Positions 4,779 through 55,683 are shown, counted from the first letter of the stretch. The stretch: 56,326 bases of DNA from an uncultured archaeon (GCA_964533255.1 CAZHKD010000001.1:1-56326), one strand, 5' to 3'. The notes: generated from the letters alone by a model not told the origin. A program made the numbers and translations.

Positions 4779-5951
4779 ATGATTGGGATTACCAAGATGG
4801 TTACAGGAGACGCCACGGTATCGGAGTTCCTGACCTACGGAGGAGACAAAAGCAGAATTCCGAAGGCACTGGTGGAGGCGAGCAAAAAAGCAATACCGGT
4901 TACCGTGTGGAACGCAACTTCCAGATGCAATCTGAAGTGCATCCACTGCTACGCTGACGCCGGCGGTAAAAGGGAGGGCGAACTCACGACCGAGGAGGCA
5001 AAGGCCTTTATTGACGATCTCGCCTCAATGAAAGTTCCCGTTCTTCTGTTCAGCGGTGGCGAACCCCTCATGCGAGAGGATATTTTTGAGCTTGCGGAAT
5101 ACGCAGTTTCGAAGGGGATAAGGTGCTCCCTCTCGACAAATGGAACTCTGATAACTCCTGAAATTGCAGAGAAGCTCAAAGAAGCCGGCTTCTCGTACAT
5201 CGGAGTGAGTCTTGACGGCATGCCAGAAACCAACGACAGGTTCAGGGGCCTTAAGGGGGCATTTCAGAAGGCTCTCGAAGGCCTGATAAACGCAAAGGAG
5301 GCAGGATTGCTGACGGGCATCAGGTTTACGGTGACAAAGTACAATTTGAAGGACGTTCCTGAGGTAATTGACCTGCTTGCCGAAAACGACATTCCGAGGT
5401 TCTGCCTGTACCACCTCGTCCCTTCGGGAAGGGCCGACTTCAGGGATGATATCTCCATTAAGGAGAGGCGTGAGCTGATAGACTGGCTTTTTGAAAAGGC
5501 TTTACAGCTTCACGATGATGGCTATAAAACAGAAATCCTTACCGTGGACAACCCGGCGGACGGCATCTACACGTATCTGAAGCTGAAGGAGAATGATGAG
5601 GAGCTTGCGGAAATGGCTTTCGAATTCATGAAGTTCAGGGGTGGAGATAACAGCGGGAAGAGAATAGCGGATGTCGACATGTTCGGCAATATCCATCCAA
5701 ACCAGTTCTGGTGGGATTACACTGTGGGAAATATAAGAACCCAAAAATTCAGCGATATCTGGCTTAAACCGACGGATGAGCTGCTGATAAAGCTGAGAGA
5801 GAAGACTAAGCATCTCAGGGGTGAGAGGTGCGGCAGGTGCAGATTTAAAGAGGTCTGCGGCGGCTTCAGACTTAGAGCTTTGAGGGCCGGTGACTTGTGG
5901 GGAGATGATCCGAGCTGTTATCTTACAAAGGAAGAGATAGGAATTGTCTGA
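4779..5951 (+). CDS. radical SAM/SPASM enzyme, NirJ / AhbC-AhbD (alternative haem biosynthesis) type
   Basis: CNLKCIHCY radical-SAM cluster motif, GGEPL SAM-binding motif, and a C-terminal auxiliary Cys cluster (RCGRCRFKEVCGG). Overall similarity to NirJ/Ahb proteins is recalled from memory. Confidence 0.75.
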   Translation: MIGITKMVTGDATVSEFLTYGGDKSRIPKALVEASKKAIPVTVWNATSRCNLKCIHCYADAGGKREGELTTEEAKAFIDDLASMKVPVLLFSGGEPLMREDIFELAEYAVSKGIRCSLSTNGTLITPEIAEKLKEAGFSYIGVSLDGMPETNDRFRGLKGAFQKALEGLINAKEAGLLTGIRFTVTKYNLKDVPEVIDLLAENDIPRFCLYHLVPSGRADFRDDISIKERRELIDWLFEKALQLHDDGYKTEILTVDNPADGIYTYLKLKENDEELAEMAFEFMKFRGGDNSGKRIADVDMFGNIHPNQFWWDYTVGNIRTQKFSDIWLKPTDELLIKLREKTKHLRGERCGRCRFKEVCGGFRLRALRAGDLWGDDPSCYLTKEEIGIV

Positions 5952-40769: not shown

Positions 40770-41612
40770 TTAAAAAATCGCGAGGACATCAATGGTTGCT
40801 CCGAGAAACACAAGTCCCAGATAAATGTCCGAGAACCTGTAGTTTTTTATCGCGTAGTCTGTTGATCTCAACAGCAGTCTGCTGAGGTAAATCATGACTG
40901 CGCCTCCAGAAGCCGATAACAGCAGGTAAAAAACTCCGAGTTCCGTGAAGTAGAGGAAGAGGATTATTGAAAAGCCAACAAGCACATACGTGCTTAGGGC
41001 AATGTACTTTCTTGCCCTGACGTTATCCACAACGGCCGGCAGCATTGGCACCCCCGCTCTCATGTAGTCCCTTTTGTGGGCAAGGGCAAAGCTCCAGAAG
41101 TGGGATGGTGTCCAGAGAAAAACCAGAAAGGACATGGCTAAAGCCAGCGTAGAGAGTTCGCTCTCAGCAGCTGCAAAGCCTGCCAGAACCGCGCAGCTTC
41201 CAGCCCAACCACCCACAACCACACTTGTCCAGCTCCTCCTCTTCAACAGGATTGTGTAGATACCCACGTATATGAACGCTCCGAGAAGGGCGAAAAAGGC
41301 TGTGGCGAAATTGATCATCGCTGCCACTGCAATCCCGGATGCCACCAGCAGACAGCCCGAAAACAGAGCAGTCTCAGGCCTGACGAGTCCACGTGGCAGA
41401 GGTCTGCTTTTTGTGCGATTCATGAGGGTGTCGATGTCCACATCGAAGTAGTTGTTGAGGGCTGCAGCCCCCGAACTTGCCAGAAATCCGGAAATCGATA
41501 GGAGCAATGCTGTGCCCACGCTGTATCCGCCACCCATAAGGTAAGATAAAAGAGCAATAAAAACCGAAAAAATTCCTATCTTGGGCTTGAATATCTGAAT
41601 CCCCGCCTCCAT
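40770..41612 (-). CDS. ctaB: protohaem IX farnesyltransferase (haem O synthase)
   Basis: 280 aa UbiA-family membrane protein. NNYFDVDIDTLMNRTKSRPLPRG is the CtaB/CyoE Asp-rich motif. It lies 16 nt downstream of oxidase subunit I. Confidence 0.9.
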   Translation of the reverse strand: MEAGIQIFKPKIGIFSVFIALLSYLMGGGYSVGTALLLSISGFLASSGAAALNNYFDVDIDTLMNRTKSRPLPRGLVRPETALFSGCLLVASGIAVAAMINFATAFFALLGAFIYVGIYTILLKRRSWTSVVVGGWAGSCAVLAGFAAAESELSTLALAMSFLVFLWTPSHFWSFALAHKRDYMRAGVPMLPAVVDNVRARKYIALSTYVLVGFSIILFLYFTELGVFYLLLSASGGAVMIYLSRLLLRSTDYAIKNYRFSDIYLGLVFLGATIDVLAIF

Positions 41613-41628
41613 GATCCTTTGAAGCGCT

Positions 41629-43242
41629 TCACCTGAGGTTCGGCAGCACTGGTGGCGCGCCAGGAGAGGCCATGTTTATTATCTGCAGCGTCGGCATTAC
41701 ATAGGCCACGAGGATAAGCAATATTGCAATTGCTGTGAAGAGTTTGAAGTTGTCAACCATCCCAGCAGGGCCAAGATTTTCCACTGTGCCATCTTTTAAC
41801 GCCACCGACTCTCTTTCACCCGAAACGGCAGTTCTGGCAATGTTGTACAGCAGAAGCACTACGCTTGCAAACATCAGAAATCCTCCTGCAGCAGCCGCAG
41901 CAAGGTATGGTGTCCAGATAGATGTCATGGGGGTGCCATACGTCACATCGTACGTCCTTCTCGGTGACCCCAGAACTCCAAGGTAAAGCATCGAGGTTGA
42001 AAACACTATTACTCCCGCAAACCACATGTACACCTGGATTAGTGCCAGCCTGCTGCTGAACAGCCGCCTACCAAGAATCTGTGGTACAAGGACATAAGAC
42101 AGTCCCATAAACGTCAGGGCTACTGCCGAACCCACAGTCAGGTGGAAGTGTCCCGGAACCCATGCAGTGTTGTGGACAACGTAATTGAGGTTGTATCCGG
42201 CGTTAACCGCTCCGGTGGCGCCGCCCAGTGCAAAGAGGATCATGGCAAGGGCTATGGAGGCAAAGGTCGGGTCCTTCCATGGAAGCCTGAGTATCCACCC
42301 AAACAGTCCGCTCCCTCCCCTGAGCCTTGCTCCCATCTCCATCGTCGCCGTAACTGTGAAGGCCGTTATCAGGCTTGGAACAAAAACCGAATAGGTTGTC
42401 GCCGTGTGAAGGTATTTCCATGCTTCCTCTATCCCGGGATCCATGAACTGGTGATGGTAGCCGACCGGTGTGGAGAAGAGGATGAAGAGGACAAAAACGA
42501 CTCTGGCGAGGGTGTCGCTGAAAATTCTGACGTTGAGAATCTTGGGGAGCACAGTGTACCACACGATGTAAACGGGCAGAAGCCAGAAGTAGACCAGCGG
42601 ATGTCCGAAGTACCAGAAGAGGTTCCTGGCCAGAAGCGGATCGATTCTTTCAGTAATCCCCAGTGACCAAGGAATCAGTAAGAACAGCGCTTCTGCTGCG
42701 ATTCCGACGGTTGCGAGTATCCATATTATGAGTGTCGCGACCACGCCGAACACGTCAAGAGGTAGTTTTTTGCCGGCATTTCCCTGCAACCTCCACTTCC
42801 TGACTGTCACGAGCACATTAGCTGTGAAAAACCAGGTTCCAACGATGAGCAGTGTAGCACCTATGTAGAACGCAGGAGAAGCCATCATTGGCGGATAGAA
42901 TGTGTAGAGAACGTTTGCCTTTCCGAGAAGTATTGTCACCGCCGCCATCGCAGCCCCAGCTGTGGCCAATCCGAATCCAAGGGCATTGAGGGAAGGATAC
43001 GTCCCGATTCCAAGGCTCCTGTTCACCACAAACAGTGCGAGGGACATTATGAAGAACGTGGTGAAAACGAGGGCCATGAGAACACCGTGTCCGGTTAGAG
43101 CCATGTAATACGTTTTTGCTGGGACAATATCTATTCCTGGAACTCTCTCCAGAACCTGAAACAGGCCGAAAATGGCTCCAAGGCCGAGAGCGATGAACGA
43201 CAGTGCAAACCCGAACTTTATGTAGAACCTGTCGTCAGGCAC
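41629..43242 (-). CDS. cbaA: haem-copper oxidase subunit I, B-family (ba3-like)
   Basis: 537 aa, about 12-13 TM. FGHPLVYFW (His-Tyr cross-link spacing H-x3-Y), HTATTYSVFVPS, and VHNTAWVPGHFHLTV (haem a3/b His pair) resemble Thermus ba3 subunit I as I recall it. Confidence 0.9.
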   Translation of the reverse strand: MPDDRFYIKFGFALSFIALGLGAIFGLFQVLERVPGIDIVPAKTYYMALTGHGVLMALVFTTFFIMSLALFVVNRSLGIGTYPSLNALGFGLATAGAAMAAVTILLGKANVLYTFYPPMMASPAFYIGATLLIVGTWFFTANVLVTVRKWRLQGNAGKKLPLDVFGVVATLIIWILATVGIAAEALFLLIPWSLGITERIDPLLARNLFWYFGHPLVYFWLLPVYIVWYTVLPKILNVRIFSDTLARVVFVLFILFSTPVGYHHQFMDPGIEEAWKYLHTATTYSVFVPSLITAFTVTATMEMGARLRGGSGLFGWILRLPWKDPTFASIALAMILFALGGATGAVNAGYNLNYVVHNTAWVPGHFHLTVGSAVALTFMGLSYVLVPQILGRRLFSSRLALIQVYMWFAGVIVFSTSMLYLGVLGSPRRTYDVTYGTPMTSIWTPYLAAAAAGGFLMFASVVLLLYNIARTAVSGERESVALKDGTVENLGPAGMVDNFKLFTAIAILLILVAYVMPTLQIINMASPGAPPVLPNLR

Positions 43243-43717
43243 TCCTCACACCTCCCTCAACAACAAGTTTGGCCTTCATCAGATGGTGTCCCTGACCGCA
43301 GTACTCGTTGCAGATGATCAGATACGCTCCAGCCTTCTCGAACTTTGCAGAAACAACAGAGATGTAGCCGGGCATCACCATTGTCTGAACATTCGTGCCA
43401 ACGACCTGAAAGCCATGAACGGCGTCTGGACTTGTGATGTAGAAGGTAACCTTTGCACCCACTGGTATGACGATTTCATTGGGTAGGAATGTCCACATCC
43501 TTGCAACCATATACACTCTGTACTCCTCTCCGGGAATCACCTCCTCAACCCTTGGGCTGGCAAATCTGCTATCTTCCCCTATTTTTTTCGGGTCTATCAC
43601 CTCAGCCCTGTGAGGTGTCTGAATGCCCACCGAAAATCCGTAGTAACCAACAATTACCAAAAACACTGCCACCATCGCAACACTGAAAAGTATCCACCCT
43701 GTTTCATACCTGTTCAT
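43235..43717 (-). CDS. cbaB: haem-copper oxidase subunit II with CuA centre
   Basis: 160 aa from ATG 43717. One N-terminal TM helix and a cupredoxin domain with CuA ligands (VHGFQV ... CNEYCGQGHHLM). 8-nt overlap with subunit I. Confidence 0.9.
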   Translation of the reverse strand: MNRYETGWILFSVAMVAVFLVIVGYYGFSVGIQTPHRAEVIDPKKIGEDSRFASPRVEEVIPGEEYRVYMVARMWTFLPNEIVIPVGAKVTFYITSPDAVHGFQVVGTNVQTMVMPGYISVVSAKFEKAGAYLIICNEYCGQGHHLMKAKLVVEGGVRSA

Positions 43718-43860
43718 GGAATAATCCCTCCTACGCTCTGATTTTTCAGGAGAACTCCAAAGTACATCCAGAGCCAAATCACTGCAATCAGCAGAGCCAG
43801 CAGCGACATTACTGCAACCGTTCCAACCGGTTTAAAGGTCTCAGGCGAGATCTCCTCCAT
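43714..43860 (-). CDS. 48-aa single-TM protein, candidate oxidase subunit IIa (CbaD-like); not in ORF track
   Basis: Own translation: MEEISPETFKPVGTVAVMSLLALLIAVIWLWMYFGVLLKNQSVGGIIP. GGGGGGAG sits 3 nt upstream of ATG 43860, and the stop overlaps the subunit II ATG (ATGA). Length, MEE start and TM helix resemble Thermus ba3 subunit IIa, from memory. Confidence 0.55.
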   Translation of the reverse strand: MEEISPETFKPVGTVAVMSLLALLIAVIWLWMYFGVLLKNQSVGGIIP

Positions 43861-43913: not shown

Positions 43914-44215
43914 TGTTTATAATTCTTACGATCCTCGCAGCAAAAGCCTTTTTCCCGAAATCAACATCTAACCTCAACAAATGCCCATCTTCCGGATGGG
44001 GGGCCACGGATAACCAGAGACGATCAGAAAGAGGAACTTCAGGAGCACCAAAGACTGGGGAGGGAGCCACCGTGTGAAGTGTTTCCGGCTATGCCCGGGG
44101 CAGTTCAACGGGTGAAAAGTCATTTCGGATGCTGCAGTTTGAGGACACCCTCAAAACATTTATATACTCCTCTGCCGAATCCTCAAAAACCGAAACTGAA
44201 AAGGAGGAGTTGGAA

Positions 44216-44473
44216 TTGGCTGAGATAACGGAAGTTAGAATATACAAGGCGAAATCTGAAGGAGCTGTAAAGGCGTATGCCTCTGTGAGTTTGGATAACG
44301 AGTTTGTTGTGAAGGGGATTAAGGTTCTGGAAGGAGAAAATGGCCTCTGGGTCAGCATGCCCAGCAGAAAGGGAAAGGATGGGACTTTCCAGGACATCTT
44401 CCATCCGGCTAGCAAGGAGGCCAGGGACAAAATAGTTAATGCTGTGCTGGAAGCGTACAGGCAGCAGGTCTGA
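44216..44473 (+). CDS. spoVG: SpoVG-family protein
   Basis: 85 aa from TTG 44216, with AAGGAGGAG ending 7-8 nt upstream. (M)AEITEVRIYKAKSEGAVKAYASVSLDNEFVVKGIKVLEGENGLWVSMPSRKGKDGTFQDIFHP aligns closely with bacterial SpoVG (MEVTDVRLR...KA.ASIT.D..FVVHDI.V..G..GLFVAMPS). Confidence 0.85.
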   Translation: MAEITEVRIYKAKSEGAVKAYASVSLDNEFVVKGIKVLEGENGLWVSMPSRKGKDGTFQDIFHPASKEARDKIVNAVLEAYRQQV

Positions 44474-44476
44474 GAC

Positions 44477-44508
44477 AGCCTGAAAGGTCGGACAGTTATA
44501 TTCAGGCT
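44477..44508 (+). terminator. hairpin plus T-rich tract after spoVG
   Basis: AGCCTGAA (44477-44484) pairs with TTCAGGCT (44501-44508) across a 16-nt loop, followed by ATTTTAAATTT. Confidence 0.35.
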
Positions 44509-44570
44509 ATTTTAAATTTAATATATTGCCATTAAAAAAATTTATTAACTTTGGCTTTTTCACTTCATTC

Positions 44571-44984
44571 ATGGAAGAAGGTGTCACACGCATCGGCGTC
44601 AGCCTGCCCAAGAACTTGCTAGATGAATTCGACAGCATCATAGAGACCAGAGGATACTCTTCCAGAAGTGAGGCTATCAGGGACGCCATCAGGAGCTACA
44701 TATCTGAGTACAAGTGGATGGAGAAGGAGGAAGGGGAGATAATAGGTGTCGTTAATGTCATTTACGACCACCACATGAAGGGCGTTACAGACGCCCTCAT
44801 AGACCTTCAGCATGAATTCGGAAGGATAATCTCCACCACCCTTCACGTCCACCTGGACAAGGATAGCTGTCTGGAGATGATACTCGTAAAGGGAGAGATG
44901 CGGGAAATCAAGAAACTTGTGGACAAAATAACTGCCCTTAGGGGAGTCATGAACGTGAAGCTGATAACAGCGCTCAAAGAATGA
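44571..44984 (+). CDS. nikR: nickel-responsive regulator NikR
   Basis: 137 aa from ATG 44571. Ribbon-helix-helix ([19 protein letters not shown]...[14 protein letters not shown]) and a C-terminal ACT-like metal-binding domain with H...H...C motifs ([13 protein letters not shown]). Confidence 0.9.
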
Positions 44985-46401: not shown

Positions 46402-46974
46402 TTACTTCCAGATTTTGCCTCGATAGTAACCCGTCACCGGACATCCAAGGCAGAGGTTGTTTTCGTAGTAGTCACAGTTCATGCAATCAGGATTGCACGA
46501 TGGGTTCTCACCCTTGTTTACGAAAAGCTTTATCGGCACGACCGTGTCCTTTTCAGCCCTCACTATTATTCCCACTTCAAGATCGTGGACGTCCGGATTT
46601 GGCCTTATGTGCTGATCCACTATGGCCTCCAGAGTTGAGAGGTCTTCGCCTATGAACATTAGGGAGAGGTTCTTGTTCCCCGCAACAATGTATCCGTTAA
46701 GGAAGAATGGACACTTTTCAAAGACCTTTATGAGCTCCCTGGGATACCTGCACTTGATGTCTACCTTTAACACATACAGCCCGGCATTTTTGAGGTTTAT
46801 GCCGTATGTGTGGCTTACTATGCCCATCTCCTTCATCCTCTTTATCCTCGCCCCTACTGATGGCTGCGACAGCCCCACCAGCTTGGCAATCTCGTTTTGC
46901 GATGCGTCTGGGTCGTTCTCCAGTATTTCCAGAATCTTTTTATCCTTTTCATCCAGCTCAAAAACGCCAGTCAT
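46402..46974 (-). CDS. Lrp/AsnC-family regulator with Cys-rich C-terminal extension
   Basis: 190 aa from ATG 46974. HTH (LDEKDKKILEILENDPDASQNEIAKLVGLSQPSVGARIKRM), a RAM-like middle, then CNPDCMNCDYYENNLCLGCP. Confidence 0.8.
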   Translation of the reverse strand: MTGVFELDEKDKKILEILENDPDASQNEIAKLVGLSQPSVGARIKRMKEMGIVSHTYGINLKNAGLYVLKVDIKCRYPRELIKVFEKCPFFLNGYIVAGNKNLSLMFIGEDLSTLEAIVDQHIRPNPDVHDLEVGIIVRAEKDTVVPIKLFVNKGENPSCNPDCMNCDYYENNLCLGCPVTGYYRGKIWK

Positions 46975-47045
46975 ACATTTTCCCCCACTCAAGCACCGGC
47001 ACCAATCTTATAAATAATTAGCGAAATTCGTTGTTTGTTGATAAC

Positions 47046-47063
47046 TTATTTATTGTTAAATAA
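47046..47063. promoter_or_regulatory. AT-rich palindrome (Lrp-box-like) upstream of the Lrp/AsnC gene
   Basis: TTATTTA-ttgt-TAAATAA is a perfect 7-bp inverted repeat upstream of the TATA-like CTTATAAATAATTA (47006-47019) on the minus-strand promoter. Confidence 0.35.
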
Positions 47064-47319
47064 CCCACTATGAGGTGGCATTGCTTCACAGGTATCCGAA
47101 GAAATACGAAATATTGAAATTAAAACCGTGCAGCATTCCGCAATGTGTAAGGGCCTTGCCTGAAGACCGGGTAAATGTCGGGTGAAGCTCTTCAGTGCCC
47201 GATCAGGAGAGCGCTGTCGGATTCAGAATTGTGAGAGAGTAATGAAGGGCGCTTCGTGTTTGTCAGAGGAAAGCATCTCGGAGAACGGGCACGAATCCGG
47301 GTGGCACCATTTTTCGTGA

Positions 47320-47874
47320 TCAATTTTTGATGGTGCCGCATTTTGTGACGATGTGGTTATAGAACATTAGGGGCATTGGCAGTGCCAAGTTTGAATTTGC
47401 TACGCGTATAAGCAGTAAAACATTGTGAAGGCTCGTTAGAGCCAAAACAAGAGAGGAGATAATCGCCCCCAAAATCAATCCGTAATAAACGCCTTTCGCA
47501 AAAGCGCCTGATAATTTTGATATATCTATTTTAATGATGATCATAGAGAACACCATTACAACGGAAAGTTTGAAAAATGCCATTAATGCTGGTGAGGTCT
47601 CAAATAAGTATACAATCGTGGGATTCAGTTCAAAAAACTCTCCACTGCTGAGACCAAGATAGGTTGTGATCAAGTCTGCAATGTTGAATGTATTGAGCAT
47701 CACAGCCAGGAAATAAGCCAATCTTTTATCAGTAATGGTTTTATTGAGCTTTTGCAAGACCCACAGGTCTCTCGTACCAGCATGTGTGTGGTTTTTCCGG
47801 ATTCTTGAGTGACTGCCACATCTCCGGTGTCTGGCTACAGTATCCAAATTCTCTGAGCCAATTACTTTATTCAT
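47320..47874 (-). CDS. DUF5658-like small membrane protein with basic N-terminal region
   Basis: 184 aa. FNIADLITTYLGLSSGEFFELNP resembles the DUF5658 signature (D..T..GL..G..E.NP), and 3-4 TM helices follow. The N-terminal 45 aa are Arg/His-rich. AT-rich gene. Confidence 0.55.
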   Translation of the reverse strand: MNKVIGSENLDTVARHRRCGSHSRIRKNHTHAGTRDLWVLQKLNKTITDKRLAYFLAVMLNTFNIADLITTYLGLSSGEFFELNPTIVYLFETSPALMAFFKLSVVMVFSMIIIKIDISKLSGAFAKGVYYGLILGAIISSLVLALTSLHNVLLLIRVANSNLALPMPLMFYNHIVTKCGTIKN

Positions 47875-47935
47875 ATTTTAGAATTAATTTTTCACCATGT
47901 ATTATCTTAAAGAAAATTAAATGCCAAAATATAGT

Positions 47936-47942
47936 AAAAAAA
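47936..47942 (-). terminator. oligo-T (T7 on minus strand) after KaiC-like gene
   Basis: A7 on the plus strand, 9 nt downstream (minus sense) of the stop at 47951-47953. Suggests the DUF5658-like gene is a separate transcription unit. Confidence 0.45.
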
Positions 47943-47950
47943 GCAAAAGT

Positions 47951-48733
47951 CTATTGATGTATCCTCACAATTCGTGACCCTGACAAATGTCCAGGTAAAA
48001 ACACATCAAGTACCTTTATTCCTGCGTGCGTGATGATGTATTCCCTGACCTCTTTTGAGTGGTTCGTTAACCTCATCTTCACGATTCGCATTAGATTCAC
48101 GACCTCTCCTCTTTCTCTTAAAAGCAGCCGTTTAAGTTCAATAATCCCGTCAAAGAGATGGTCAATCTCGGGAAATCTGTGCCCTAGAAGTACGAGTGCG
48201 GTGGAACCGTTGTTCCTTATGATATTCAGCAGATGGGTAGCTCTACCCAACCTCTCGATGCCTCTCTCACATAGAAGCAGAAATTCAGTTAGAGAGTCTA
48301 TTACAACCACATCCGCAACGTTTTCAGCAAGAGCAGCTGGCAGCTCTTCCAAATAATCAGAGATAATTGTTATTTTGTAATGGGGAGAGTGCTCCTGTCC
48401 GCTGGATAGGGGCCTTTGGGTCGGTATCGGCTCTATTCTAACGGGCAGGAAGTACCTGAACAAGAGCTGCTCAGTTTCAAGATATTTTTTAAAATCCCAC
48501 CCAAAAAAATTAGCTGTATTTAAGAGGGACTCTACACTCTGGCTCGTGGAAATGTAAAGGCAGCTCAGGTTCTGCTGCAGACAGGAATAGGTGAACTGAA
48601 GTGCGGCAATTGTTTTTCCAGTGCCAGATGCACCGAGCAAGGTAACCACATAATCTTTTGGAATTCCCCAATTGAGCATTTCATCAAGGCCTTCTATCCC
48701 CGTTTTAATTTTCTCAGCCGACATCAACATCAC
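47951..48733 (-). CDS. single-domain KaiC-like (RecA-superfamily) ATPase
   Basis: 260 aa. TGIEGLDEMLNWGIPKDYVVTLLGASGTGKTIAALQF (Walker A), VVVIDSLTE (Walker B), STALVLLGH. The GTG/ATG start lies 3 nt after the cytochrome stop. Confidence 0.85.
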   Translation of the reverse strand: MMLMSAEKIKTGIEGLDEMLNWGIPKDYVVTLLGASGTGKTIAALQFTYSCLQQNLSCLYISTSQSVESLLNTANFFGWDFKKYLETEQLLFRYFLPVRIEPIPTQRPLSSGQEHSPHYKITIISDYLEELPAALAENVADVVVIDSLTEFLLLCERGIERLGRATHLLNIIRNNGSTALVLLGHRFPEIDHLFDGIIELKRLLLRERGEVVNLMRIVKMRLTNHSKEVREYIITHAGIKVLDVFLPGHLSGSRIVRIHQ

Positions 48734-48736
48734 CTT

Positions 48737-49201
48737 TCAGTTACTCCCCATCCTCTCAGCCCATTCAACTCTCTCAACAGAAAGGCCAACTGACCATTTA
48801 CCGTCCCCTCCAGGTGCTGCGTCTATGCTGATAACTGTCCTTCTCCTTCCGACTCTCTGAGCTTTAGGGCCAGGGATATGACAGAATTCGCAAGAAGCGA
48901 CGGAGAGATGGGCATAGGCATGGCAGTCAACACATTCCATACTTATGGTCGAATGTGGAGCGATAGCTTCTTCAAAGGGTTTGCGGAATTTAACTGCGTG
49001 ACACGTTCTGCAGTCTTCAGAATCTGCTCTTTCGGGGTCACCCCAGCTTTTATGAGACGGTGATGAATCGAGCTGGTAATATTCATCGGCATGGCAGAAG
49101 CTGCACCTAACCTCACTGTAGGCTGAAACGTGATCGGATGGAATGAACATGGGCAGCAGGGCGCCGGCAAAGGCAATTGCAAAGGTCAAGTACTTGATCA
49201 T
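48737..49201 (-). CDS. secreted or membrane-anchored tetrahaem c-type cytochrome
   Basis: 154 aa. N-terminal signal sequence (MIKYLTFAIAFAGALLPMFIP) and four CxxCH motifs (CSFCH, CRTCH, CVDCH, CEFCH at aa 33, 64, 90, 104), with additional His residues available as distal ligands. Confidence 0.85.
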   Translation of the reverse strand: MIKYLTFAIAFAGALLPMFIPSDHVSAYSEVRCSFCHADEYYQLDSSPSHKSWGDPERADSEDCRTCHAVKFRKPFEEAIAPHSTISMECVDCHAYAHLSVASCEFCHIPGPKAQRVGRRRTVISIDAAPGGDGKWSVGLSVERVEWAERMGSN

Positions 49202-49212
49202 AAACCAGCACC

Positions 49213-49566
49213 TTATCTTTTTAGATTATTTTTTATTTTAGTAGCTAGAATTTCTTTAGTCTCCTCCTTTGCAGACTCTATTACTTCAGAGACATCGAAG
49301 ACATTTTTCAGGTATCTATTGCTTTTAGCGAGGTCAATCAGCCCGATAAGGGCATCTGCAAATGAATCAATGGCTTCATGAGGCAAATTCAGCTTGACCT
49401 GTATGGGATTCCGAAGGCCGTTAAACCAAACTTTCAGGACGACCATATCTGAGCTGGAGCTGTCACGGGGTTCAAGTTCAAAAACAGAGATGTCTTCTAA
49501 GCAGAGGTACGTGTGATTAACTCTGAGGTACGGCATCGTCACCACCTCAGTAATTTTTGTGGCCAT
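49213..49566 (-). CDS. hypothetical protein (117 aa), first gene of the cytochrome/KaiC operon
   Basis: ATG 49566 lies about 24 nt downstream of a TATA-like box, and there are 11 nt (containing GGTG) between its stop and the cytochrome ATG. No family recognised. Predicted beta-rich N-half and helical C-half. Confidence 0.55.
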   Translation of the reverse strand: MATKITEVVTMPYLRVNHTYLCLEDISVFELEPRDSSSSDMVVLKVWFNGLRNPIQVKLNLPHEAIDSFADALIGLIDLAKSNRYLKNVFDVSEVIESAKEETKEILATKIKNNLKR

Positions 49567-49583
49567 TATTGTAATAATAAGGA

Positions 49584-49596
49584 TAATTTAAAAAAT
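49584..49596 (-). promoter_or_regulatory. TATA-like box of the hyp117-cytochrome-KaiC operon
   Basis: ATTTTTTAAATTA (minus-strand sense) is centred about 24 nt upstream of ATG 49566, suggesting a leaderless transcript. Confidence 0.45.
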
Positions 49597-49607
49597 AGTG
49601 CAAATTC

Positions 49608-49650
49608 GTGTTAAGAGACGTTAAAGCACGTTAAAGAAAAAACGTTAATG
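49608..49650 (-). promoter_or_regulatory. array of four phased direct repeats (consensus ACGTTAA(A/T)G)
   Basis: The GTTAA cores begin at 49610, 49620, 49630 and 49644 (spacing 10, 10, 14 nt): gtGTTAAg, acGTTAAag, acGTTAAag, acGTTAAtg. They lie upstream of the TATA box of the operon and immediately downstream of the sensor gene stop. Confidence 0.55.
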
Positions 49651-49681
49651 ACGGGTTCAAAAATGATAAACCTGAATGGAG

Positions 49682-52600
49682 TTACAACAACTCTTTCCCC
49701 CTGTCCGTAAGCTCGAGAACCTTGTATCTGCCAATTTTTCTCTCGATAATAAGTCCAAGACTCTTCAACTCTTTCAGTTTCTTTGTTGCCGTAGGGCGTG
49801 TTATATTGAAGGCCCTCATGATGTCTTTATGGGCTGGATTTCTGCCCAGATCGTTCTGTCTCTGTATGTATCTCAGAATGTCAAAAAGGTCCTCCTTCAG
49901 TTTAATCCGGTACTTGGGCTCTATCCTTTTGACCTCTTTCTCCAGCCGCACGCGTTCCCGTTCTGAAAGGATGTCCGGGTCGATTACAACCAAAAGGATG
50001 CCCTTGGTCAAATACACCAGTTCATTCAGCTTGGTAAGGAACTTCAAAACCTCATCGAAGCCGTGAATCAGTATTAAGTAGTCCAGCCTGTCCAAGAGCA
50101 CGACGTTGTTTCTGGACATGAAGTCTTCAACAATTTTCTCAAGAAGTAAAAGTTCTGGACGTACTATACCCTTTCCTTTCTTCTTCTCGCTAATCCAGAG
50201 AATCTCCACATCCTCACCAACTAATTTCTCAATCTCCTCTGGCGGAGTTCTGCTGATCACCATGGCTTTGTATCCAATGTCAATCAGATTTCTGAGAACA
50301 TCTGAACCTCTGTCCAGAGTCTTATCCAGAATCAGGTAGCTTCTTCCCCTCTCAATATTGTAATTCAGAGCCTTCAGCCTGAGCCTCTCCTCGGCTTCCT
50401 TAATTTCAGTTATATCTACAAGAACCTTCAGGTTCCCGACATAGCGGCCGTTCTCTATGATAGGGGTGGCGCTGACAATAACGTGCAGCTCCCGCTCTCC
50501 AGCATTTAACACCGCATTGAACCTCACCCTCTCACCGTTTCTTACTCTGCGATTCTCCTCTCTTATTTTCCCTTCGCAGTCAGGGGAGAAAATCTCAGAC
50601 CAGTGCTTTCCTATAAGCTCCTCTTTGGAGCTGCCGAGCATTTCAAGCATGCGGGGGTTGGCAAACGTTATGTATCCATCTTCATCCTCTATTAGAATAC
50701 CTTCTTCCATGCTCTGGACGATTTTCTCATTAAACTCCTTCAACCGTCTTATCTCTTCCTCCGCTTTCTTCCGATCGATTGCCGTGGATAGCGTATTGGC
50801 AACTGCTTGCAGAAAATTGATATCGTCCGCACTAAAATTTCTTTTTTTGGTTGTGTATGCCCCTAAAACGCCAAATACCTTAACCTTCCCCGGAATAACG
50901 GTGCTTATTCCGCTGACAAAGTCTAGCTGTGCTGAGGCCGGTACTTTGAAACTCCCGGTGGGAAGGTCTTTCACAATGAAAGGCTCATCCGACTTCAGAG
51001 TTTGCGCAATCAGAGGGTGGGAACTGATATCAAACGTTCTCACCTGCAATTCATCCTTCAGTCCGGTAACTGCACGTACCAGCACATCCCTCCCACTCGG
51101 AGAGAGTTCCAGAATCTCGACATAATCCACTTCGAGGCTCTGTGCAACGAGCTCAGCGGCCTCATTCATGAGCACATCGAGGTCAGCACCTGACAAAGCC
51201 AGCCCACTCAGTTTTGAGAGGGCTACGTGATGGCGAACCTCCCATGTTTTCATGATAACTTTTCTGACCCTTTCAGTATCAAGCCAGCCCCTGTTCAACC
51301 TCTCAATAATTTCCTCTATTTTCTGGATTTGTTCTTGCATTTTGACGGCAGCTTCCCTGTCCTCAACAGTTGCCTCAGTCATGGCAAGCAGAGCAGTAAG
51401 CGGGTCGCCGATCTCGTCGATTAGCGTAGCGAACTGGTATATGTTCTCCTCGATTTGCTCAACGGCCTTTCTACTAATCTCTTCCAACTCAATGTTCCTG
51501 ACCGCAAACCCGATATCGTTGGATATCGTCTCCAGCAGTTCGAGCTCTTCAATACTCAATTCAGCCTCCGTTCCCTGATATAGTATGAGCACGCCCCTTG
51601 GGACTCCGTCAACAACCATGGGGAAAAACAGAACCTGCTTCACACCCCACTGACCGGCTAAGCAATTTCTGCACTTCTCCGCTCGCCCTTTGACTACTTT
51701 ACCGCCTCTGACAACCTCATTCAACACCTCGCAGTGATCCACTTCAGGCAGGGTCTGTCCGCAGGAAGTAGCGGTTACGATCTCGCCGTTCTCGATAAGA
51801 CCTATTCTGGCGGATATGAACTCATGAAGACTGGTAAGCTCCATACATACCTTCTCTAAAAGCCTTTGCCGGTCTTTTTCCTGGACAATTATCCTTCCAA
51901 TTCTGATTAGTCCTTTGAGGAGCATTTCCCGCCTTTTTATATCTGTTATATCTCTTGAAATCACAAGGCAGTGCCTGTCCCCCCTCAGCTCAAGAGGGAC
52001 AAAAGAATTTATGAAGTGCCTGCCTTCTCTGCTGTCCTCGAACGCGATCCGCTTATTCTCCTTTATGGCCTTGAGGGCATAATTCATCCTCCTCTCTGCA
52101 ACATCTCTGGGGAGCACATGGTAGACGCTCTTCCCGACGGGATTGATGCCGAGACTCTCAATCATCGCAGGATTGGCTTCGATAATGACTCCATCCTCTC
52201 TGACTATTCCGACGATGTTGGGAGTGTTCTGGAATATCATTCTGTATTTTTCCTCGCTTCTTCTCAGCTCTTCCTGAAGTTCTTTCAGCTCAGTTATGTC
52301 GGTGTATATTCCAAAAGCCTCTGTTCTATCCCCTGCCTTAATCGGAACTCCTGTCAAAATAAAGTACTTTTCCCCGAAAGCCGTCTTCCTGCAAACCTCC
52401 GCCCGTACGAACTCACCGGATAGCACAATTCTGTTTAGCTCCTTTGCCTCTGCTAGCCTCTCGGGAGGCACAATAATCTCATCAAGTTTCCTTCCCGTAA
52501 CTTCAGACTTAGGATACCCAAACACCCGCTCAAAGGCAGGGTTTACGTCCTTTATTACCGGTTCACCATCAGCAAATTCCACGATTACAGAGGGATCGGA

Positions 52601-53689
52601 TATGTTTTCGAATAGAGCCCTAAACCTGTTTCCCTCCTCCTTCAGCCTCTCATGAGACCTCTTTAGCTCCGTTATGTCCTTCAAAAAGTCCACCATGTAT
52701 TTTTTGTCTCCGGCATCCACCTGCATGCCCACGATATCAAGAACCCTCCTGCTGCCATCGGGCAGCACGATCTCGTATCCCTCGATTCTTCCCGCCAGCT
52801 TTCCTTCAGATGCGATGGTCTCTTGAACGGATTTTTTAAGAGTGCTGTAAGCTCTTACGCTTCTTCTCTCTTCGGGCAAAAGCTGAAATATCACGTCCCA
52901 GATTTCCCTTCCAATAACATCTTCCCTCTTTAACCCGGTCAGCCTCTCTGCTGCTCTGTTCCACTCTACAATCCGACCCCTCTCATCCTTCACGGCTATG
53001 CCAACTGTGGTGTTCTGAAGCAGGGCATTATATCTATCCCTGAGACTCCTGAATTCATCCAGAATCTTCTTCTTGGTTACAATGCCATCTCTCAACCTCT
53101 TGTAAACCTCCCTGTCGACTTCCCTGCCCAAGAAAACATGGGGTGGGAGGTAGTACGGGTTGTCGTGAATGGTGTCCTGGAGAACCACTGTCGGGTGTGT
53201 CAGAATGGCACTGACCAATCTATCAGCTTCAGACATCTCCTCGCTGTACAGACATAGAGCAACGGTTTTGCTCTGATGCAGAAAGTGGTTCAGCTTTGCC
53301 TCGTACTCCGTGAGCCTCTCGACTCCGGGTACGTCAGCTAAAGCCCAGGTCATGTCACTAGCCATCCTTAATCCTCTGAAACCCTCATTGATTGCCTGTT
53401 TTTCCATCTCCTCGATCAGCCGAATCACCTCATCTGGCTGGAAACTTTTGTTCCCGAGATACATTTCTTCTGAAGTCAGAAAAACCAGCTGGTCTGAAGG
53501 TTGCCGGGGGATGTCGAATTTCGCTAACGAGGATAAGACCTCATCCCGGGTTCTCTCATCCAGGATACATACGCACTTCTCATTTTTCCTGAAACCTTCT
53601 AGTAGGAACTGAGTGAGAGTTGAGAGCTGTTCTTCACGGCTTCTGAAAATTGCACACATGTGGTCGTGAAGAGAAGGTTTAAGCCTCAT
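49682..53689 (-). CDS. 1335-aa multidomain one-component sensor-regulator: MEDS - PAS x3 - GAF - DHp-like hairpin - GAF - PAS - DUF835 - wHTH
   Basis: Start at ATG 53689 (AT-rich promoter upstream). MEDS (HDHMCAIFRSREEQLSTLTQFLLEGFRKNEKCVCIL..., aa 1-185). PAS repeats at about aa 215-340, 350-470 and 478-588. GAF at about 595-735. HisKA-like helix with Asp in the His position at aa 740-805. GAF at about 820-972. PAS at about 980-1097. DUF835-like module at about 1110-1258. C-terminal wHTH (NPAHKDIMRAFNITRPTATKKLKELKSLGLI). Confidence 0.9.
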   Translation of the reverse strand: MRLKPSLHDHMCAIFRSREEQLSTLTQFLLEGFRKNEKCVCILDERTRDEVLSSLAKFDIPRQPSDQLVFLTSEEMYLGNKSFQPDEVIRLIEEMEKQAINEGFRGLRMASDMTWALADVPGVERLTEYEAKLNHFLHQSKTVALCLYSEEMSEADRLVSAILTHPTVVLQDTIHDNPYYLPPHVFLGREVDREVYKRLRDGIVTKKKILDEFRSLRDRYNALLQNTTVGIAVKDERGRIVEWNRAAERLTGLKREDVIGREIWDVIFQLLPEERRSVRAYSTLKKSVQETIASEGKLAGRIEGYEIVLPDGSRRVLDIVGMQVDAGDKKYMVDFLKDITELKRSHERLKEEGNRFRALFENISDPSVIVEFADGEPVIKDVNPAFERVFGYPKSEVTGRKLDEIIVPPERLAEAKELNRIVLSGEFVRAEVCRKTAFGEKYFILTGVPIKAGDRTEAFGIYTDITELKELQEELRRSEEKYRMIFQNTPNIVGIVREDGVIIEANPAMIESLGINPVGKSVYHVLPRDVAERRMNYALKAIKENKRIAFEDSREGRHFINSFVPLELRGDRHCLVISRDITDIKRREMLLKGLIRIGRIIVQEKDRQRLLEKVCMELTSLHEFISARIGLIENGEIVTATSCGQTLPEVDHCEVLNEVVRGGKVVKGRAEKCRNCLAGQWGVKQVLFFPMVVDGVPRGVLILYQGTEAELSIEELELLETISNDIGFAVRNIELEEISRKAVEQIEENIYQFATLIDEIGDPLTALLAMTEATVEDREAAVKMQEQIQKIEEIIERLNRGWLDTERVRKVIMKTWEVRHHVALSKLSGLALSGADLDVLMNEAAELVAQSLEVDYVEILELSPSGRDVLVRAVTGLKDELQVRTFDISSHPLIAQTLKSDEPFIVKDLPTGSFKVPASAQLDFVSGISTVIPGKVKVFGVLGAYTTKKRNFSADDINFLQAVANTLSTAIDRKKAEEEIRRLKEFNEKIVQSMEEGILIEDEDGYITFANPRMLEMLGSSKEELIGKHWSEIFSPDCEGKIREENRRVRNGERVRFNAVLNAGERELHVIVSATPIIENGRYVGNLKVLVDITEIKEAEERLRLKALNYNIERGRSYLILDKTLDRGSDVLRNLIDIGYKAMVISRTPPEEIEKLVGEDVEILWISEKKKGKGIVRPELLLLEKIVEDFMSRNNVVLLDRLDYLILIHGFDEVLKFLTKLNELVYLTKGILLVVIDPDILSERERVRLEKEVKRIEPKYRIKLKEDLFDILRYIQRQNDLGRNPAHKDIMRAFNITRPTATKKLKELKSLGLIIERKIGRYKVLELTDRGKELL

Positions 53690-54041: not shown

Positions 54042-55424
54042 TTGGTGATGCGCATGAGAGCATGGCTTGTGGCGGCGGTATTATTGTTGGTATTGGTGCC
54101 AGCATTCGCAGCGGCATCCAGCATGGATGATGAGAAGGAAAAGATGAGTGAAGACATGATGGGAGAACACGGAGGGGCCGCAAATGCTACTCCTGGAGCA
54201 CCCATGGGTCCCATGGGGCCTGCAACCCCGCAGAAATGGCAGGAACGCAGGGAGGAGTTCAGAGAGAAAATGAAAGAAAGGGCTGAGGAAATGAGGGAGA
54301 AGTACAGGGAGAGAGCAGAGGAAATGAGGGAGAGAATGAAGGAAAGGGCAGAGAAGTATCACGAGTTCAGGGAGAAGTACGAGAAGGAGAGGGAGGAGTA
54401 CATGAAGATGAGAGGGGATCTAAAAGGTGAGAGGTTCGAACATGCCAAGCGCTTTGTCCATGCTGGCGGTAACATGGGCATAGCATACCTCGAGAGGCTG
54501 AGAATTTACGTTGAGAACACTCCAAGGATCTCTAATGAAAGCAGGGCAGAGATACTGGCTCAGATAGACGAGTACATATCGCTGCTGGATGAGAAGGTAA
54601 GCAGGGTGAACAATTCAACCACGCCAGAAGAGCTGAGAGAGGCAGTAAAAGAGCTGAGAGATACTTGGAAGGACGTCAGAAAGGGTATAAAGAGTATTGT
54701 TGGCCAGATAGTGGCTGCAAAGCTCGAAACAGTTATCGACAGGGCAGAGCTTGTGGAAAGCAGGCTTGATGAAAAGATTATTGCCTTGCAGGAAGCTGGT
54801 TATGATACCTCCAGCCTCGAAGCGCTGCTGAGTGATTACTCGGAAAAGATTGACCTCGCGAAAGAGAAGATTCAGGAGGCGAAGGAGAAGTTCAGAGCTG
54901 CGGGAAGCGCTGAGGATGTGGATGAGTTGTTCCGTGAAGGGGACAGCCTGCTTAAGGAGGCAAACAGATACCTGAGAGAGGCTTTTAAGGACATCAAGGA
55001 GTTTGTTAAGGAGCTGAAGCCGGGAATCAGGGAGGGAAGGATATTCTTCGGAGGTAAGGCAGGAGAGGTGTGGGCAAGTGGCGACGGGATTGCAGAAGTA
55101 AATGGAGATGCAATTGTTCGCGTCAGCGGAGAAGGTACGTTGGAGATTACTCCTGCAGATGCGGTGGTCACGGTTGTGGGCTTTGGGGAGAAGAGCGTCG
55201 CTGACAACACTGTAACCTTCACCGGGGAGGGCAAAGCAGTTATCAGGGGCAAGGATATAACAGTTAGGATAGAAGGGGAGGACGTTAAGCTATTCGCCAA
55301 GGGCAAGGGCAGTCTGTATCTGGAAGGAGAAGGATACTACAGGGTAAAGAAGCTGCCAGAGGAGGAGATGAGTGAGGAAATAGAGTTTGAAGGAAGCGTG
55401 ACAGTTGACTTCGGAGGGGAGTGA
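54042..55424 (+). CDS. secreted coiled-coil protein with beta-rich Gly-repeat C-terminal domain
   Basis: 460 aa; the real start is probably ATG 54048 or 54054. Signal peptide MRMRAWLVAAVLLLVLVPAFAAASS, a Met/His/Pro-rich segment, repeated ERAEEMRE(K/R) heptad-like units, a long helical region, then a GxG-rich beta region (GDGIAEVNGDAIVRVSGEGTLEI...). Confidence 0.7.
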   Translation: MVMRMRAWLVAAVLLLVLVPAFAAASSMDDEKEKMSEDMMGEHGGAANATPGAPMGPMGPATPQKWQERREEFREKMKERAEEMREKYRERAEEMRERMKERAEKYHEFREKYEKEREEYMKMRGDLKGERFEHAKRFVHAGGNMGIAYLERLRIYVENTPRISNESRAEILAQIDEYISLLDEKVSRVNNSTTPEELREAVKELRDTWKDVRKGIKSIVGQIVAAKLETVIDRAELVESRLDEKIIALQEAGYDTSSLEALLSDYSEKIDLAKEKIQEAKEKFRAAGSAEDVDELFREGDSLLKEANRYLREAFKDIKEFVKELKPGIREGRIFFGGKAGEVWASGDGIAEVNGDAIVRVSGEGTLEITPADAVVTVVGFGEKSVADNTVTFTGEGKAVIRGKDITVRIEGEDVKLFAKGKGSLYLEGEGYYRVKKLPEEEMSEEIEFEGSVTVDFGGE

Positions 55425-55425
55425 G

Positions 55426-55683
55426 GTGCGGAAGGCGATAGTGCTGGTGCTGGTAGTCTCAGCCTTATTCCTCGGATGCGTCCAGGAGGCAAAGCAGAAG
55501 TCACCTGTCTCCACCCCCACACCAACTCCAGAACCAACACCGACACCCACGCCGACGCCCGCACAAACCCAGGAGAGCGTGGTGCAGGACCAGGACATTC
55601 AACAGGCGATTAGCGATATTCAGGAAATCGAATCCCTCATGAGCGAGCTGCAGCAACTCGACAACCTGACATTTCAGATCTAA
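55426..55683 (+). CDS. small lipoprotein with (Thr-Pro)n linker
   Basis: 85 aa from GTG 55426, 1 nt after the upstream stop and preceded by GGAGGGGAG. Lipobox LFLGC, then STPTPTPEPTPTPTPTP and an acidic helical tail. Confidence 0.6.
   Translation: MRKAIVLVLVVSALFLGCVQEAKQKSPVSTPTPTPEPTPTPTPTPAQTQESVVQDQDIQQAISDIQEIESLMSELQQLDNLTFQI

Follow-up and report, generated by a model that had tools for sequence, protein, structure and literature searches.

Can five neighbouring genes of an uncultured archaeon form a signalling unit centred on a KaiC-family protein and, if they do, is that unit of a new kind? The genes in question occupy positions 47320–53689 of a 56,326-nucleotide (nt) stretch of DNA (GCA_964533255.1 CAZHKD010000001.1:1-56326), the whole of which is referred to here as the window, and were put forward, in a preliminary description made from the sequence alone, as a candidate for an undescribed KaiC-centred redox signalling module. 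The genes, their strands, the gaps between them and the domain calls are all real. Taken together, they probably constitute a functionally linked unit of a regulator and an operon. A signalling network of archaeal KaiC proteins and their inactivated relatives (iKaiC) is, however, already a published proposal (Makarova, Galperin and Koonin 2017, mBio 8:e01959-17, as set out in the summary by Galperin et al. 2018, PMC5847659), and the locus is thus probably a narrowly distributed variant of that network rather than a new kind of system. What stands of the original claim to novelty is that a full-text literature search combining the two terms brought up no gene cluster that couples KaiC with a multihaem cytochrome, although a mention in Makarova et al. 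2017 cannot be excluded. It is the cytochrome, together with a small protein designated X and a DUF5658 membrane protein, that sets this clade of KaiC-family proteins (designated KaiC*) apart from the general KaiC/iKaiC pairing.

The network proposal still rests mostly on genomic associations, and the 6.4 kilobases (kb) considered here unite two pseudo-KaiC modules, a probably hydrolysis-dead KaiC*, a predicted DNA-binding output, a conserved promoter and an envelope redox protein. Our own reading, which is tentative and which we place somewhat short of an even chance, takes the locus for a regulator-plus-target unit that is composed of KaiC-superfamily parts and coupled through KaiC-family modules.

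Gene content of the locus

All five open reading frames (ORFs) lie on the minus strand, as first described, and their coordinates were confirmed. Listed in the direction of transcription, they are as follows.

49682–53689, minus strand: cytoplasmic one-component sensor-regulator of 1335 amino acids (aa), in the order MEDS, three PAS, GAF, His-less DHp-like hairpin, GAF, PAS, DUF835, winged helix-turn-helix (wHTH)
49213–49536, minus strand: X, a small cytoplasmic protein of 107 aa counted from Met11 (the 117-aa ORF of the earlier reading extends to 49566)
48737–49201, minus strand: exported tetrahaem c-type cytochrome, 154 aa, with the motifs CSFCH, CRTCH, CVDCH and CEFCH
47951–48733, minus strand: KaiC*, a single-domain KaiC-family P-loop protein, 260 aa, with a likely start at 48724
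47320–47874, minus strand: DUF5658 membrane protein, 184 aa (PF18902, 42.5 bits against a cut-off of 25.2, E 1.2e-10)

The arrangement is reproduced in an independent metagenome assembly (L019, JGI 3300023440), which has the same gene order and the same 1335-aa sensor call and is 99.8% identical at the nucleotide level over 8 kb. The gaps of 115, 11 and 3 nt reported between the genes are correct for the ORFs as they were then read, the starts of X and KaiC* having since been revised (see below). The domain assignments, too, were upheld by profile searches, in which the ORFs were scanned against Pfam and the sensor was additionally scanned as ten fragments.

Conservation of the operon and its linkage to the regulator

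Homologues of these genes also sit together elsewhere. Contigs obtained from crustal fluid of the Juan de Fuca Ridge (L001–L004, L011 and L012) carry the genes for X, the cytochrome, KaiC* and the DUF5658 protein in the same order and with the same tight spacing, except that L012 is without DUF5658. Amino acid identity between the window and L001 is 49% for X, 37% for the cytochrome, 61% for KaiC* (P0002, its closest homologue) and 46% for the DUF5658 protein. The source metagenomes are rich in Archaeoglobi genomes and the contigs that carry the block are probably from Archaeoglobi; the origin of these relatives, a Geoglobus homologue of X and the gene content suggest that the host of the window and the other carriers are Archaeoglobi-like. 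The co-occurrence anticipated in the preliminary description is therefore seen, in that the four genes and a linked sensor recur in a second lineage, but with two lineages in total this is no general system. When 5.8 billion protein clusters were searched with a cytochrome profile, only two clusters came up, that of the window and that of the second lineage.

The sensor orthologue in L001 is 771 aa long and is encoded on the same strand, 8.5 kb upstream of the block. Its identity to the window sensor is 67% over the last ~500 residues of the latter (831–1335, from the second GAF domain on) and reaches 76% in the final 204, where the end of DUF835 and the wHTH lie. The 7,867-nt interval between sensor and block is bracketed by a 36-nt direct repeat (94% identity between copies; L001 619–654 and 8486–8521), one copy lying directly after the sensor stop codon and the other upstream of X, and it holds a cassette of seven genes for acyl-CoA metabolism and transport, among them two AMP-dependent ligases, an enoyl-CoA hydratase, MaoC dehydratases and an SSF transporter. 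Because the repeats flank the cassette, the simplest reading is an insertion between a formerly adjacent sensor and operon, and we conclude from the sequence that the two were probably once neighbours in the second lineage. When every ORF of the window was compared with the L001 neighbourhood, nothing was shared beyond the sensor and the four operon genes, save for one weak match within the ABC-transporter family.

The same comparison bears on a quite different explanation, namely that the four-gene block is a transferred island or the remnant of a mobile element, linked by chance to an unrelated sensor and carrying a KaiC* that may be degenerating. The GC content at third codon positions (GC3) is 0.44–0.48 in the four genes as against 0.55–0.61 in the sensor and flanking genes. 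In L001, genes for an AAA_14/DUF4143 ATPase and an MCM helicase are found 2.5–5 kb downstream of the block. L012, which is 97–99% identical to L001 at the nucleotide level (the same species), diverges from it ~90 nt past the KaiC* stop codon. DUF5658 has been lost there in a rearrangement, and in its place, at the edge of the block, L012 has:

L012 10378–11564: C-terminal fragment of an insertion sequence (IS)-family transposase and a VapC/VapB (PIN/AbrB) pair

These features, together with the arrays in which other X homologues are found (L014 and L020, see below), suggest that the block was horizontally acquired and that X derives from a mobile-element gene pool; in our view the block, which is compositionally distinct from its host, is probably an accessory unit that a few Archaeoglobi-like lineages obtained by horizontal transfer. 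Its extremely narrow distribution and the loss of catalytic residues from KaiC* are likewise what mere cargo would predict. Cargo would not, however, be expected to look as these genes do in other respects. In neither lineage is any of the four ORFs disrupted, even though the proteins have diverged by 40–60%, and the conservation within them of the Walker motifs, the CxxCH motifs and the distal His residues argues for purifying selection. The promoter is better conserved than the coding DNA, the sensor is the sole other gene retained nearby and was apparently adjacent originally, no integrase, att site or tRNA was found in the window, and searches of IMG/VR and PHROGs gave no meaningful matches for the locus. 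On balance, a chance association of cargo and sensor strikes us as unlikely.

A narrow and patchy distribution, and the abundance of mobile-element-type genes around the block in L001 and L012, might also be expected of an anti-virus or anti-plasmid defence system, or another kind of conflict system, based on a KaiC/P-loop protein, and KaiC* does give a weak match to mad8 in PADLOC (E 3.5e-4). No component has a convincing PADLOC match, though, the sensor matching only through a generic Csa3-type wHTH; nuclease, toxin and other effector domains are absent, and we know of no precedent for an exported cytochrome in a defence system. As neither PADLOC, PHROGs nor IMG/VR gave a meaningful match, a defence or viral role was set aside as highly improbable.

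The promoter of the X operon

If sensor and operon are functionally linked, the region between them should be informative. It contains the following elements.

49564–49598, minus strand: conserved core promoter of the X operon, with the TATA-like TTTTTTAAATTA (49584–49595) followed by ATCCTTATTATTACAATAATG
49609–49648, minus strand: phased repeat array, candidate regulator-binding sites; three TTAACG units (49643–49648, 49629–49634, 49619–49624) and one TTAACA (49609–49614), spaced 14, 10 and 10
49636–49643 and 49658–49664: oligo-T tracts, beside and just upstream of the repeat array
49564–49681: span containing the candidate control elements, namely the TTAACG units and ATCCTTATTATTACAATAA

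The core promoter is identical to that of L001 at 29 of its 35 nt (83%), compared with 62–66% for the coding DNA of the module and 74% for the 3' end of the sensor gene. An ATG within this block is out of frame with X in L001, which indicates that the block is non-coding. The phased repeats noted earlier in the 115-nt gap are real: the paired TTAAC pattern occurs twice, with none expected from 100 shuffles, and the array lies upstream of the TATA-like box of the X operon. The TTAACG array is absent from every other locus compared. Nor does it recur upstream of the sensor gene, so that autoregulation through the same site is unsupported. The oligo-T tracts could serve to terminate the sensor transcript.

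The sensor-regulator

The architecture first described for the 1335-aa protein, with MEDS at the start, DUF835 and a wHTH at the end, and four PAS domains, two GAF domains and a His-less hairpin between them, was confirmed by Pfam and PADLOC. All the domains are encoded on the minus strand.

53192–53665: MEDS (PF14417), residues 9–166, Pfam E 7.5e-40 to 1e-38, without a Walker A motif
Residues ~219–585: three PAS domains (Pfam)
Residues ~605–732: GAF1 (Pfam)
51662–51763: Cys cluster in GAF1 (C643, C653, C673-x2-C676), read from the sequence
51278–51436: His-less DHp-like hairpin, residues 752–804, HisKA 23 bits against a cut-off of 26.9, H-box IDEIGDPL
Residues 835–973: GAF2 (Pfam)
Residues 986–1095: fourth PAS domain (Pfam)
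49934–50314: DUF835 (PF05763), residues 1126–1252, Pfam E 1.5e-29 to 3.5e-28
49688–49918: C-terminal wHTH of the Csa3/CARF3 type, residues ~1258–1334, PADLOC PDLC01879, E 1.6e-7

The protein had also been described as lacking a kinase or receiver domain, and Pfam scans of the whole protein and of the ten fragments indeed found neither HATPase_c nor REC. It is not a two-component histidine kinase: in addition to these absences, the HisKA match is below threshold and, in a manual alignment to the canonical H-box HE[LI]RTPL, Asp758 takes the position of the phospho-His. The combination of four PAS and two GAF domains with a predicted DNA-binding wHTH in one cytoplasmic polypeptide instead points to a one-component regulator. 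Several Pfam wHTH families score at or just under threshold at the C-terminus (DUF6293_C, for example, at 26.9 bits against 27). The sole strongly hydrophobic stretch of the protein (residues 686–704) lies inside GAF1, making a membrane segment unlikely, and the Cys cluster in the same domain is a candidate redox, metal or cofactor site. The ATG at 53689 is a plausible start, with a TATA-like TTTTAAATAA ~30 nt upstream.

MEDS and DUF835 are both listed in the network summary as inactivated KaiC-like output or sensor domains (PMC5847659). On this classification the sensor itself holds two KaiC-family modules, one at each end. An hhalign comparison of MEDS with KaiC covers the Walker A/beta1-alpha1-beta2 region, without the motif (E 2.6e-4, probability 43%).

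KaiC* and its relatives

KaiC* matches PF06745 well above the curated threshold (131.6 bits against a cut-off of 26.6, E 3.9e-38, residues 9–242), and its Walker A (GASGTGKT, G34–T41) and Walker B (VVVIDS, VVVID146) motifs are invariant in the family alignment. The catalytic Glu-Glu pair, on the other hand, is replaced by Ser64-Gln65, with ISTSQS where canonical archaeal homologues have ISLEED, and HMMER alignments set this SQ opposite the EE of both the CI and CII domains of KaiC (FEES/YEES; E77/E78 and E318/E319). The earlier label of a Walker-intact KaiC-like ATPase is thus right as regards the motifs and the family but not as regards the ATPase. Loss of the pair is common to P0002, P0004 and P0005 (I(S/T)TSQ(S/N)) and P0006 (ISASHD), and the clade also carries a Ser/Pro/Gln-rich insertion of ~25 aa. 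From what is known of RecA/KaiC catalysis, KaiC* would be expected to bind nucleotide and to hydrolyse it poorly or not at all, and its role is probably that of a switch or scaffold that binds nucleotide, rather than that of an active ATPase. Judging from homologue lengths and an upstream AAGGTGA, translation probably begins at the ATG at 48724 (MSAEK...); an exact look-up of the ORF as first read gave no match, probably owing to its start codon.

KaiC* is not a circadian KaiC, having a single domain and scoring 94 bits against an equivalog cut-off of 408, and neither KaiA nor KaiB was detected in family scans of eight proteins in or next to the locus. What it does have is the company expected of the KaiC/iKaiC network: it adjoins a gene in which above-threshold MEDS and DUF835 domains are fused to input and output domains, an arrangement that would suit a hub. 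A similar picture emerges from six distant KaiC homologues that keep the Glu pair. Four of them have a gene for a KaiC-superfamily or MEDS protein immediately upstream and in a fifth the upstream gene is cut by the contig end; none of the six has a cytochrome neighbour. The recurrence of KaiC paired with iKaiC or MEDS genes in distant homologues fits the published network proposal.

Other partners are seen in the close relative P0005 (locus L008). The gene that follows it (L008 10757–11428) encodes a 223-aa protein with weak DUF835, DUF7090 and KaiC matches and a C-terminal membrane anchor, which may be a membrane-tethered pseudo-KaiC partner of P0005. Neither this protein nor a second partner, of 88 aa, showed any relation to X or to the C-terminus of the sensor. 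P0005 lies ~4.5 kb from a SpoVG-NikR gene pair that also flanks the window locus, and the P0005 locus may be the positional counterpart of the window locus with other partner genes. Between the two loci (window 44129–44984 and L008 15229–16408), the members of the SpoVG-NikR pair are 70% and 54% identical at the amino acid level.

The tetrahaem cytochrome

The description of the cytochrome as an exported tetrahaem protein is borne out by its four CxxCH motifs and by a hydrophobic, signal-like segment at residues 1–20. By our own reading, a putative cleavage site lies between VSA and Y and is conserved in L001, as is a C-terminal domain of ~35 aa that has no haem motif. The c7, c3 and NapC families of Pfam score near threshold, Cytochrome_C7 giving 23.4 bits for the window protein and 25.6 for its L001 orthologue with a cut-off of 24.8. 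In the mature proteins of both orthologues only three non-motif His residues, and no Met, are conserved. There are therefore seven conserved His for four haems, leaving one haem without a conserved sixth ligand inside the protein. Such a haem could be five-coordinate and open to ligands, or it could be ligated by another subunit.

When a profile built from the two sequences was compared with the PDB, the best match was 8e5g_A (E 2e-4); the L001 orthologue (P0026) alone gave E 0.006. The window cytochrome alone did not match 8e5g in the PDB, its best match being the small tetrahaem cytochrome 1m1p (E 0.37). According to two reports, 8E5G is AvECN, the tetrahaem nanowire subunit of Archaeoglobus veneficus (PMC12954529; PMC11176372). 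An AlphaFold2 (AF2) model of the window protein (pLDDT 38) was unusable for fold comparison, and the relation to AvECN is only a lead resting on weak sequence similarity.

Might the cytochrome nonetheless be the effector of the system? The operon would then be an accessory to electron transfer at the envelope, with the cytochrome as carrier or polymer subunit, X, KaiC* and the DUF5658 protein acting to place, assemble or gate it, and the sensor as a mere regulator, KaiC being no hub. The profile match to AvECN is in keeping with this, and the ratio of seven conserved His to four haems would fit a His ligand supplied by an adjacent subunit, an arrangement that reviews report for certain cytochrome filaments. 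Secretion and assembly of such filaments are stated to be unknown in a recent report (bioRxiv 10.1101/2025.10.22.684050). KaiC-family proteins also have a role in surface-structure machines, KaiC* scoring 49 and 48.7 bits against ArlH/FlaH models, and genes for haem biosynthesis and a haem-copper oxidase are present in the window. Set against these points are the failure of the window cytochrome alone to match 8e5g, its size of 154 aa, about half the 262 aa of AvECN, the poor AF2 model, the absence of secretion or assembly genes nearby and a KaiC* whose missing glutamates make it a poor candidate for an assembly motor. We regard this explanation as unlikely, to the same degree as a chance association of cargo and sensor.

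X and the DUF5658 protein

X, reported as a 117-aa orphan, turns out to be shorter and to have relatives. Its start is almost certainly Met11 (the ATG at 49536), since a strong Shine-Dalgarno sequence, GAGGTGGTGA, lies at 49539–49548, all homologues begin with MPFL and the upstream ATG falls in the non-coding promoter block. An exhaustive HMMER search of 1.84 billion representatives brought to light homologues in three clusters, 106–110 aa in length and with 36–49% identity (P0021 49%, P0022 37% and P0023 36%), giving a family of four members including X; a word-index protein search had returned the query itself only. Two long HMMER matches, P0024 and P0025, were dropped as low-complexity repeat proteins. 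In L001, the ribosome-binding site and initial codons of X lie within a perfect 45-nt tandem duplication (9037–9126), which L012 lacks and which could be strain variation or an assembly artefact.

Structure prediction for the presumed orphan gave a confident AF2 model (mean pLDDT 86.7, from four sequences only) with five strands, a helix, a short strand and a long C-terminal helix. Foldseek matches to the model were weak and PH-like only: bacterial PH/DUF1696 domains, the kindlin PH domain and the C-lobe of the FAK FERM domain (best E 0.026, TM 0.37–0.45). The top match was 3dcx (E 0.026, probability 0.99, TM 0.37), whilst the FAK FERM C-lobe gave a TM of 0.45. X is a predicted PH-like beta-sandwich with a long C-terminal helix. 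No Pfam family scored above threshold and a fold search of BFVD gave no significant match.

The X homologues of L014 (Geoglobus sp. UBA235) and L020 have small, overlapping genes for Zn-ribbon proteins as their neighbours, and these arrays resemble a plasmid or virus-like element that has integrated. L014 (9500–16600) additionally has an exonuclease-like ORF and, ~4 kb from the X homologue, a gene for an MCM helicase.

The last protein of the locus had been described as a DUF5658-like membrane protein, and in this it was read correctly: PF18902 is matched above threshold, and hydropathy analysis gives a basic cytoplasmic N-terminus of ~55 aa followed by at least three hydrophobic segments. No paper naming DUF5658 was found in a literature search. 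The gene is preceded by an oligo-T tract and a TATA-like TTTAAGATAA of its own. The spacer between KaiC* and DUF5658 (47875–47950) contains, besides the oligo-T tract, TTCTTTAAG, which resembles the TTCTTTAAC unit of the array upstream of X; DUF5658 may thus have its own promoter related to the array of the X operon, the motif count being not above chance.

A tentative model and its significance

From these features we infer the protein contacts, redox input, DNA target and direction of signalling of the following model. The PAS/GAF-wHTH regulator would control the adjacent, separately promoted X operon. The degenerate KaiC* would serve as a nucleotide-dependent switch or scaffold, rather than as a motor or kinase, and would associate with the MEDS and DUF835 modules of the regulator through oligomerisation of RecA folds, whilst being tied to the envelope by the DUF5658 protein, by X or by both. 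Cytoplasmic PAS/GAF signals could thereby be integrated with the state of the extracytoplasmic cytochrome, and the output would be transcription driven by the conserved promoter and the TTAACG array that precede X. Taken to its full extent, the model would be a trans-envelope redox or ligand-sensing pathway of a sort so far undescribed. The open-site haem of the cytochrome would signal a small ligand, or the redox state outside the cell, to the DUF5658 protein, which together with X would alter the oligomeric or nucleotide state of a dead KaiC* switch; this switch, docked on MEDS and DUF835, would set the activity of the wHTH at the TTAACG array or promoter. A complete route of this kind is improbable in our estimation; if it were true, the KaiC hub proposed for archaea would have its first worked-out case, one that takes its input from an extracytoplasmic cytochrome.

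Several observations weigh against coupling by KaiC-family modules. The labels 'KaiC-centred' and 'redox signalling' go beyond the direct evidence. The module is present in only two lineages, as judged from protein searches (5.8 billion clusters; 1.84 billion representatives), so that common descent or one transfer event, in place of selection for function, could account for the conserved gene order. The parts also occur separately: the nearest paralogues of KaiC*, P0004 (58% identity) and P0005 (55%), both from GCA_003935005.1, are without a cytochrome, P0004 standing alone; the X homologues of Geoglobus sp. UBA235 (L014) and of L020 have no cytochrome or KaiC gene within the 20 kb and 1.3 kb, respectively, around them; and L012 has kept X, the cytochrome and KaiC* without DUF5658. 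The shorter sensor of L001, in which MEDS is not among the listed domains, means that a contact between MEDS and KaiC cannot be essential. L001 does not have the TTAACG array as such but only two spaced TTAAC motifs. Finally, the lost catalytic glutamates of KaiC* could equally be read as those of a decaying protein.

Whatever its outcome, a regulator-plus-target unit of this kind gives rise to hypotheses that can be tested in vitro, on the pairing of KaiC modules, on nucleotide binding without hydrolysis as a signal and on the target of the wHTH. Were the cytochrome truly coupled to the regulator, the locus would link extracytoplasmic redox chemistry to transcription in subsurface Archaeoglobi-type archaea without a two-component system. 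Were it uncoupled, the locus would still carry two warnings: that KaiC-family members annotated as ATPases can be without catalytic residues, and that an apparent orphan can be a mis-started gene of a rare family found elsewhere in mobile-element-like arrays.

Neighbouring genes in the window

Outside the locus, the following were observed in the window.

4779–5951, plus strand: radical S-adenosylmethionine gene of the AhbC type (alternative haem pathway)
40770–43777, minus strand: haem o synthase gene adjoining divergent genes for haem-copper oxidase subunits I and II
46402–46992, minus strand: Lrp/AsnC-type wHTH regulator with a C-terminal tail, CNPDCMNCDYYENNLCLGCP, that is unusual in being rich in Cys; it lies immediately downstream of the module
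46993–47319: 327 nt between the DUF5658 and Lrp-type genes, with no ORF of at least 60 aa and no Rfam or tRNA match
54042–55424, plus strand: 460-aa protein with a signal peptide and charged, coiled-coil-like repeats, divergent from the sensor; no family assignment
55405–55683, plus strand: small protein with a (TP)n linker, following the 460-aa repeat protein; no family assignment

The haem and oxidase gene content stands out in what is presumably a subsurface archaeon. The Cys-rich tail CNPDCMNCDYYENNLCLGCP could be a metal or Fe-S site, and the block of distinct composition may have its edge at the ORF-free stretch. Neither Rfam families nor tRNAs were detected in scans of the whole window.

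Comparison with known systems

Walker motifs and a KaiC fold are common to the locus and the cyanobacterial KaiABC clock, and KaiC CI and CII are what KaiC* matches best in the PDB (E down to 3.6e-29). The locus differs in that KaiC* has one domain instead of two, has SQ for EE and, by our own reading of the alignments, has Asp-His at the positions aligned to S431/T432. A closer parallel in domain number is ArlH/FlaH of the archaellum motor, a single-domain member of the KaiC family that is not a clock component and binds its partners at the membrane in a nucleotide-dependent manner. The NCBIfam models for it are matched weakly by KaiC* (49.4 and 48.7 bits), far under their cut-offs of 215 and 194 bits; the partners of KaiC* are different ones and archaellum genes are absent nearby.

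The cytoplasmic sensor has an N-terminal MEDS domain in common with MEDS regulators of the DcmR type, reportedly the subject of work by Anantharaman and Aravind in 2005, and with RsbA-type anti-sigma regulators. Compared with RsbA, it scores 54.9 bits against an NCBIfam cut-off of 210 and has a different, PAS/GAF-DUF835-wHTH architecture.

As regards the cytochrome, AvECN is likewise a small exported archaeal protein with four CxxCH haems, and there is weak similarity over haem motifs 1–3, including a P-x-HK-x-x-G segment. AvECN is larger, at 262 aa as opposed to 154, and the window cytochrome adds a haem-less C-terminal domain. The near-threshold c7, c3 and NapC scores are its likeness to small tetrahaem and c7-type cytochromes. 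Redox or ligand sensing by way of a reactive Cys, a haem or an open-site c-type haem is known from PAS/GAF sensors of the MsmS/RdmS type in methanogens and from the periplasmic c-haem domains of Geobacter chemoreceptors. Those proteins, however, are kinases or chemoreceptors that carry the haem within their own chain, whereas here a separate cytochrome accompanies a regulator without a kinase.

The system that the locus resembles in its overall design is the KaiC/iKaiC network, with a single-domain KaiC-family gene beside MEDS and DUF835 modules that share a chain with PAS/GAF inputs and an HTH output. Three differences stand out. The operon adds an exported tetrahaem cytochrome, the PH-like X and a DUF5658 protein, which we have not found described as partners of KaiC; the 'active' partner, KaiC*, is itself without the catalytic Glu pair; and a single polypeptide carries two distinct iKaiC modules, one at each end.

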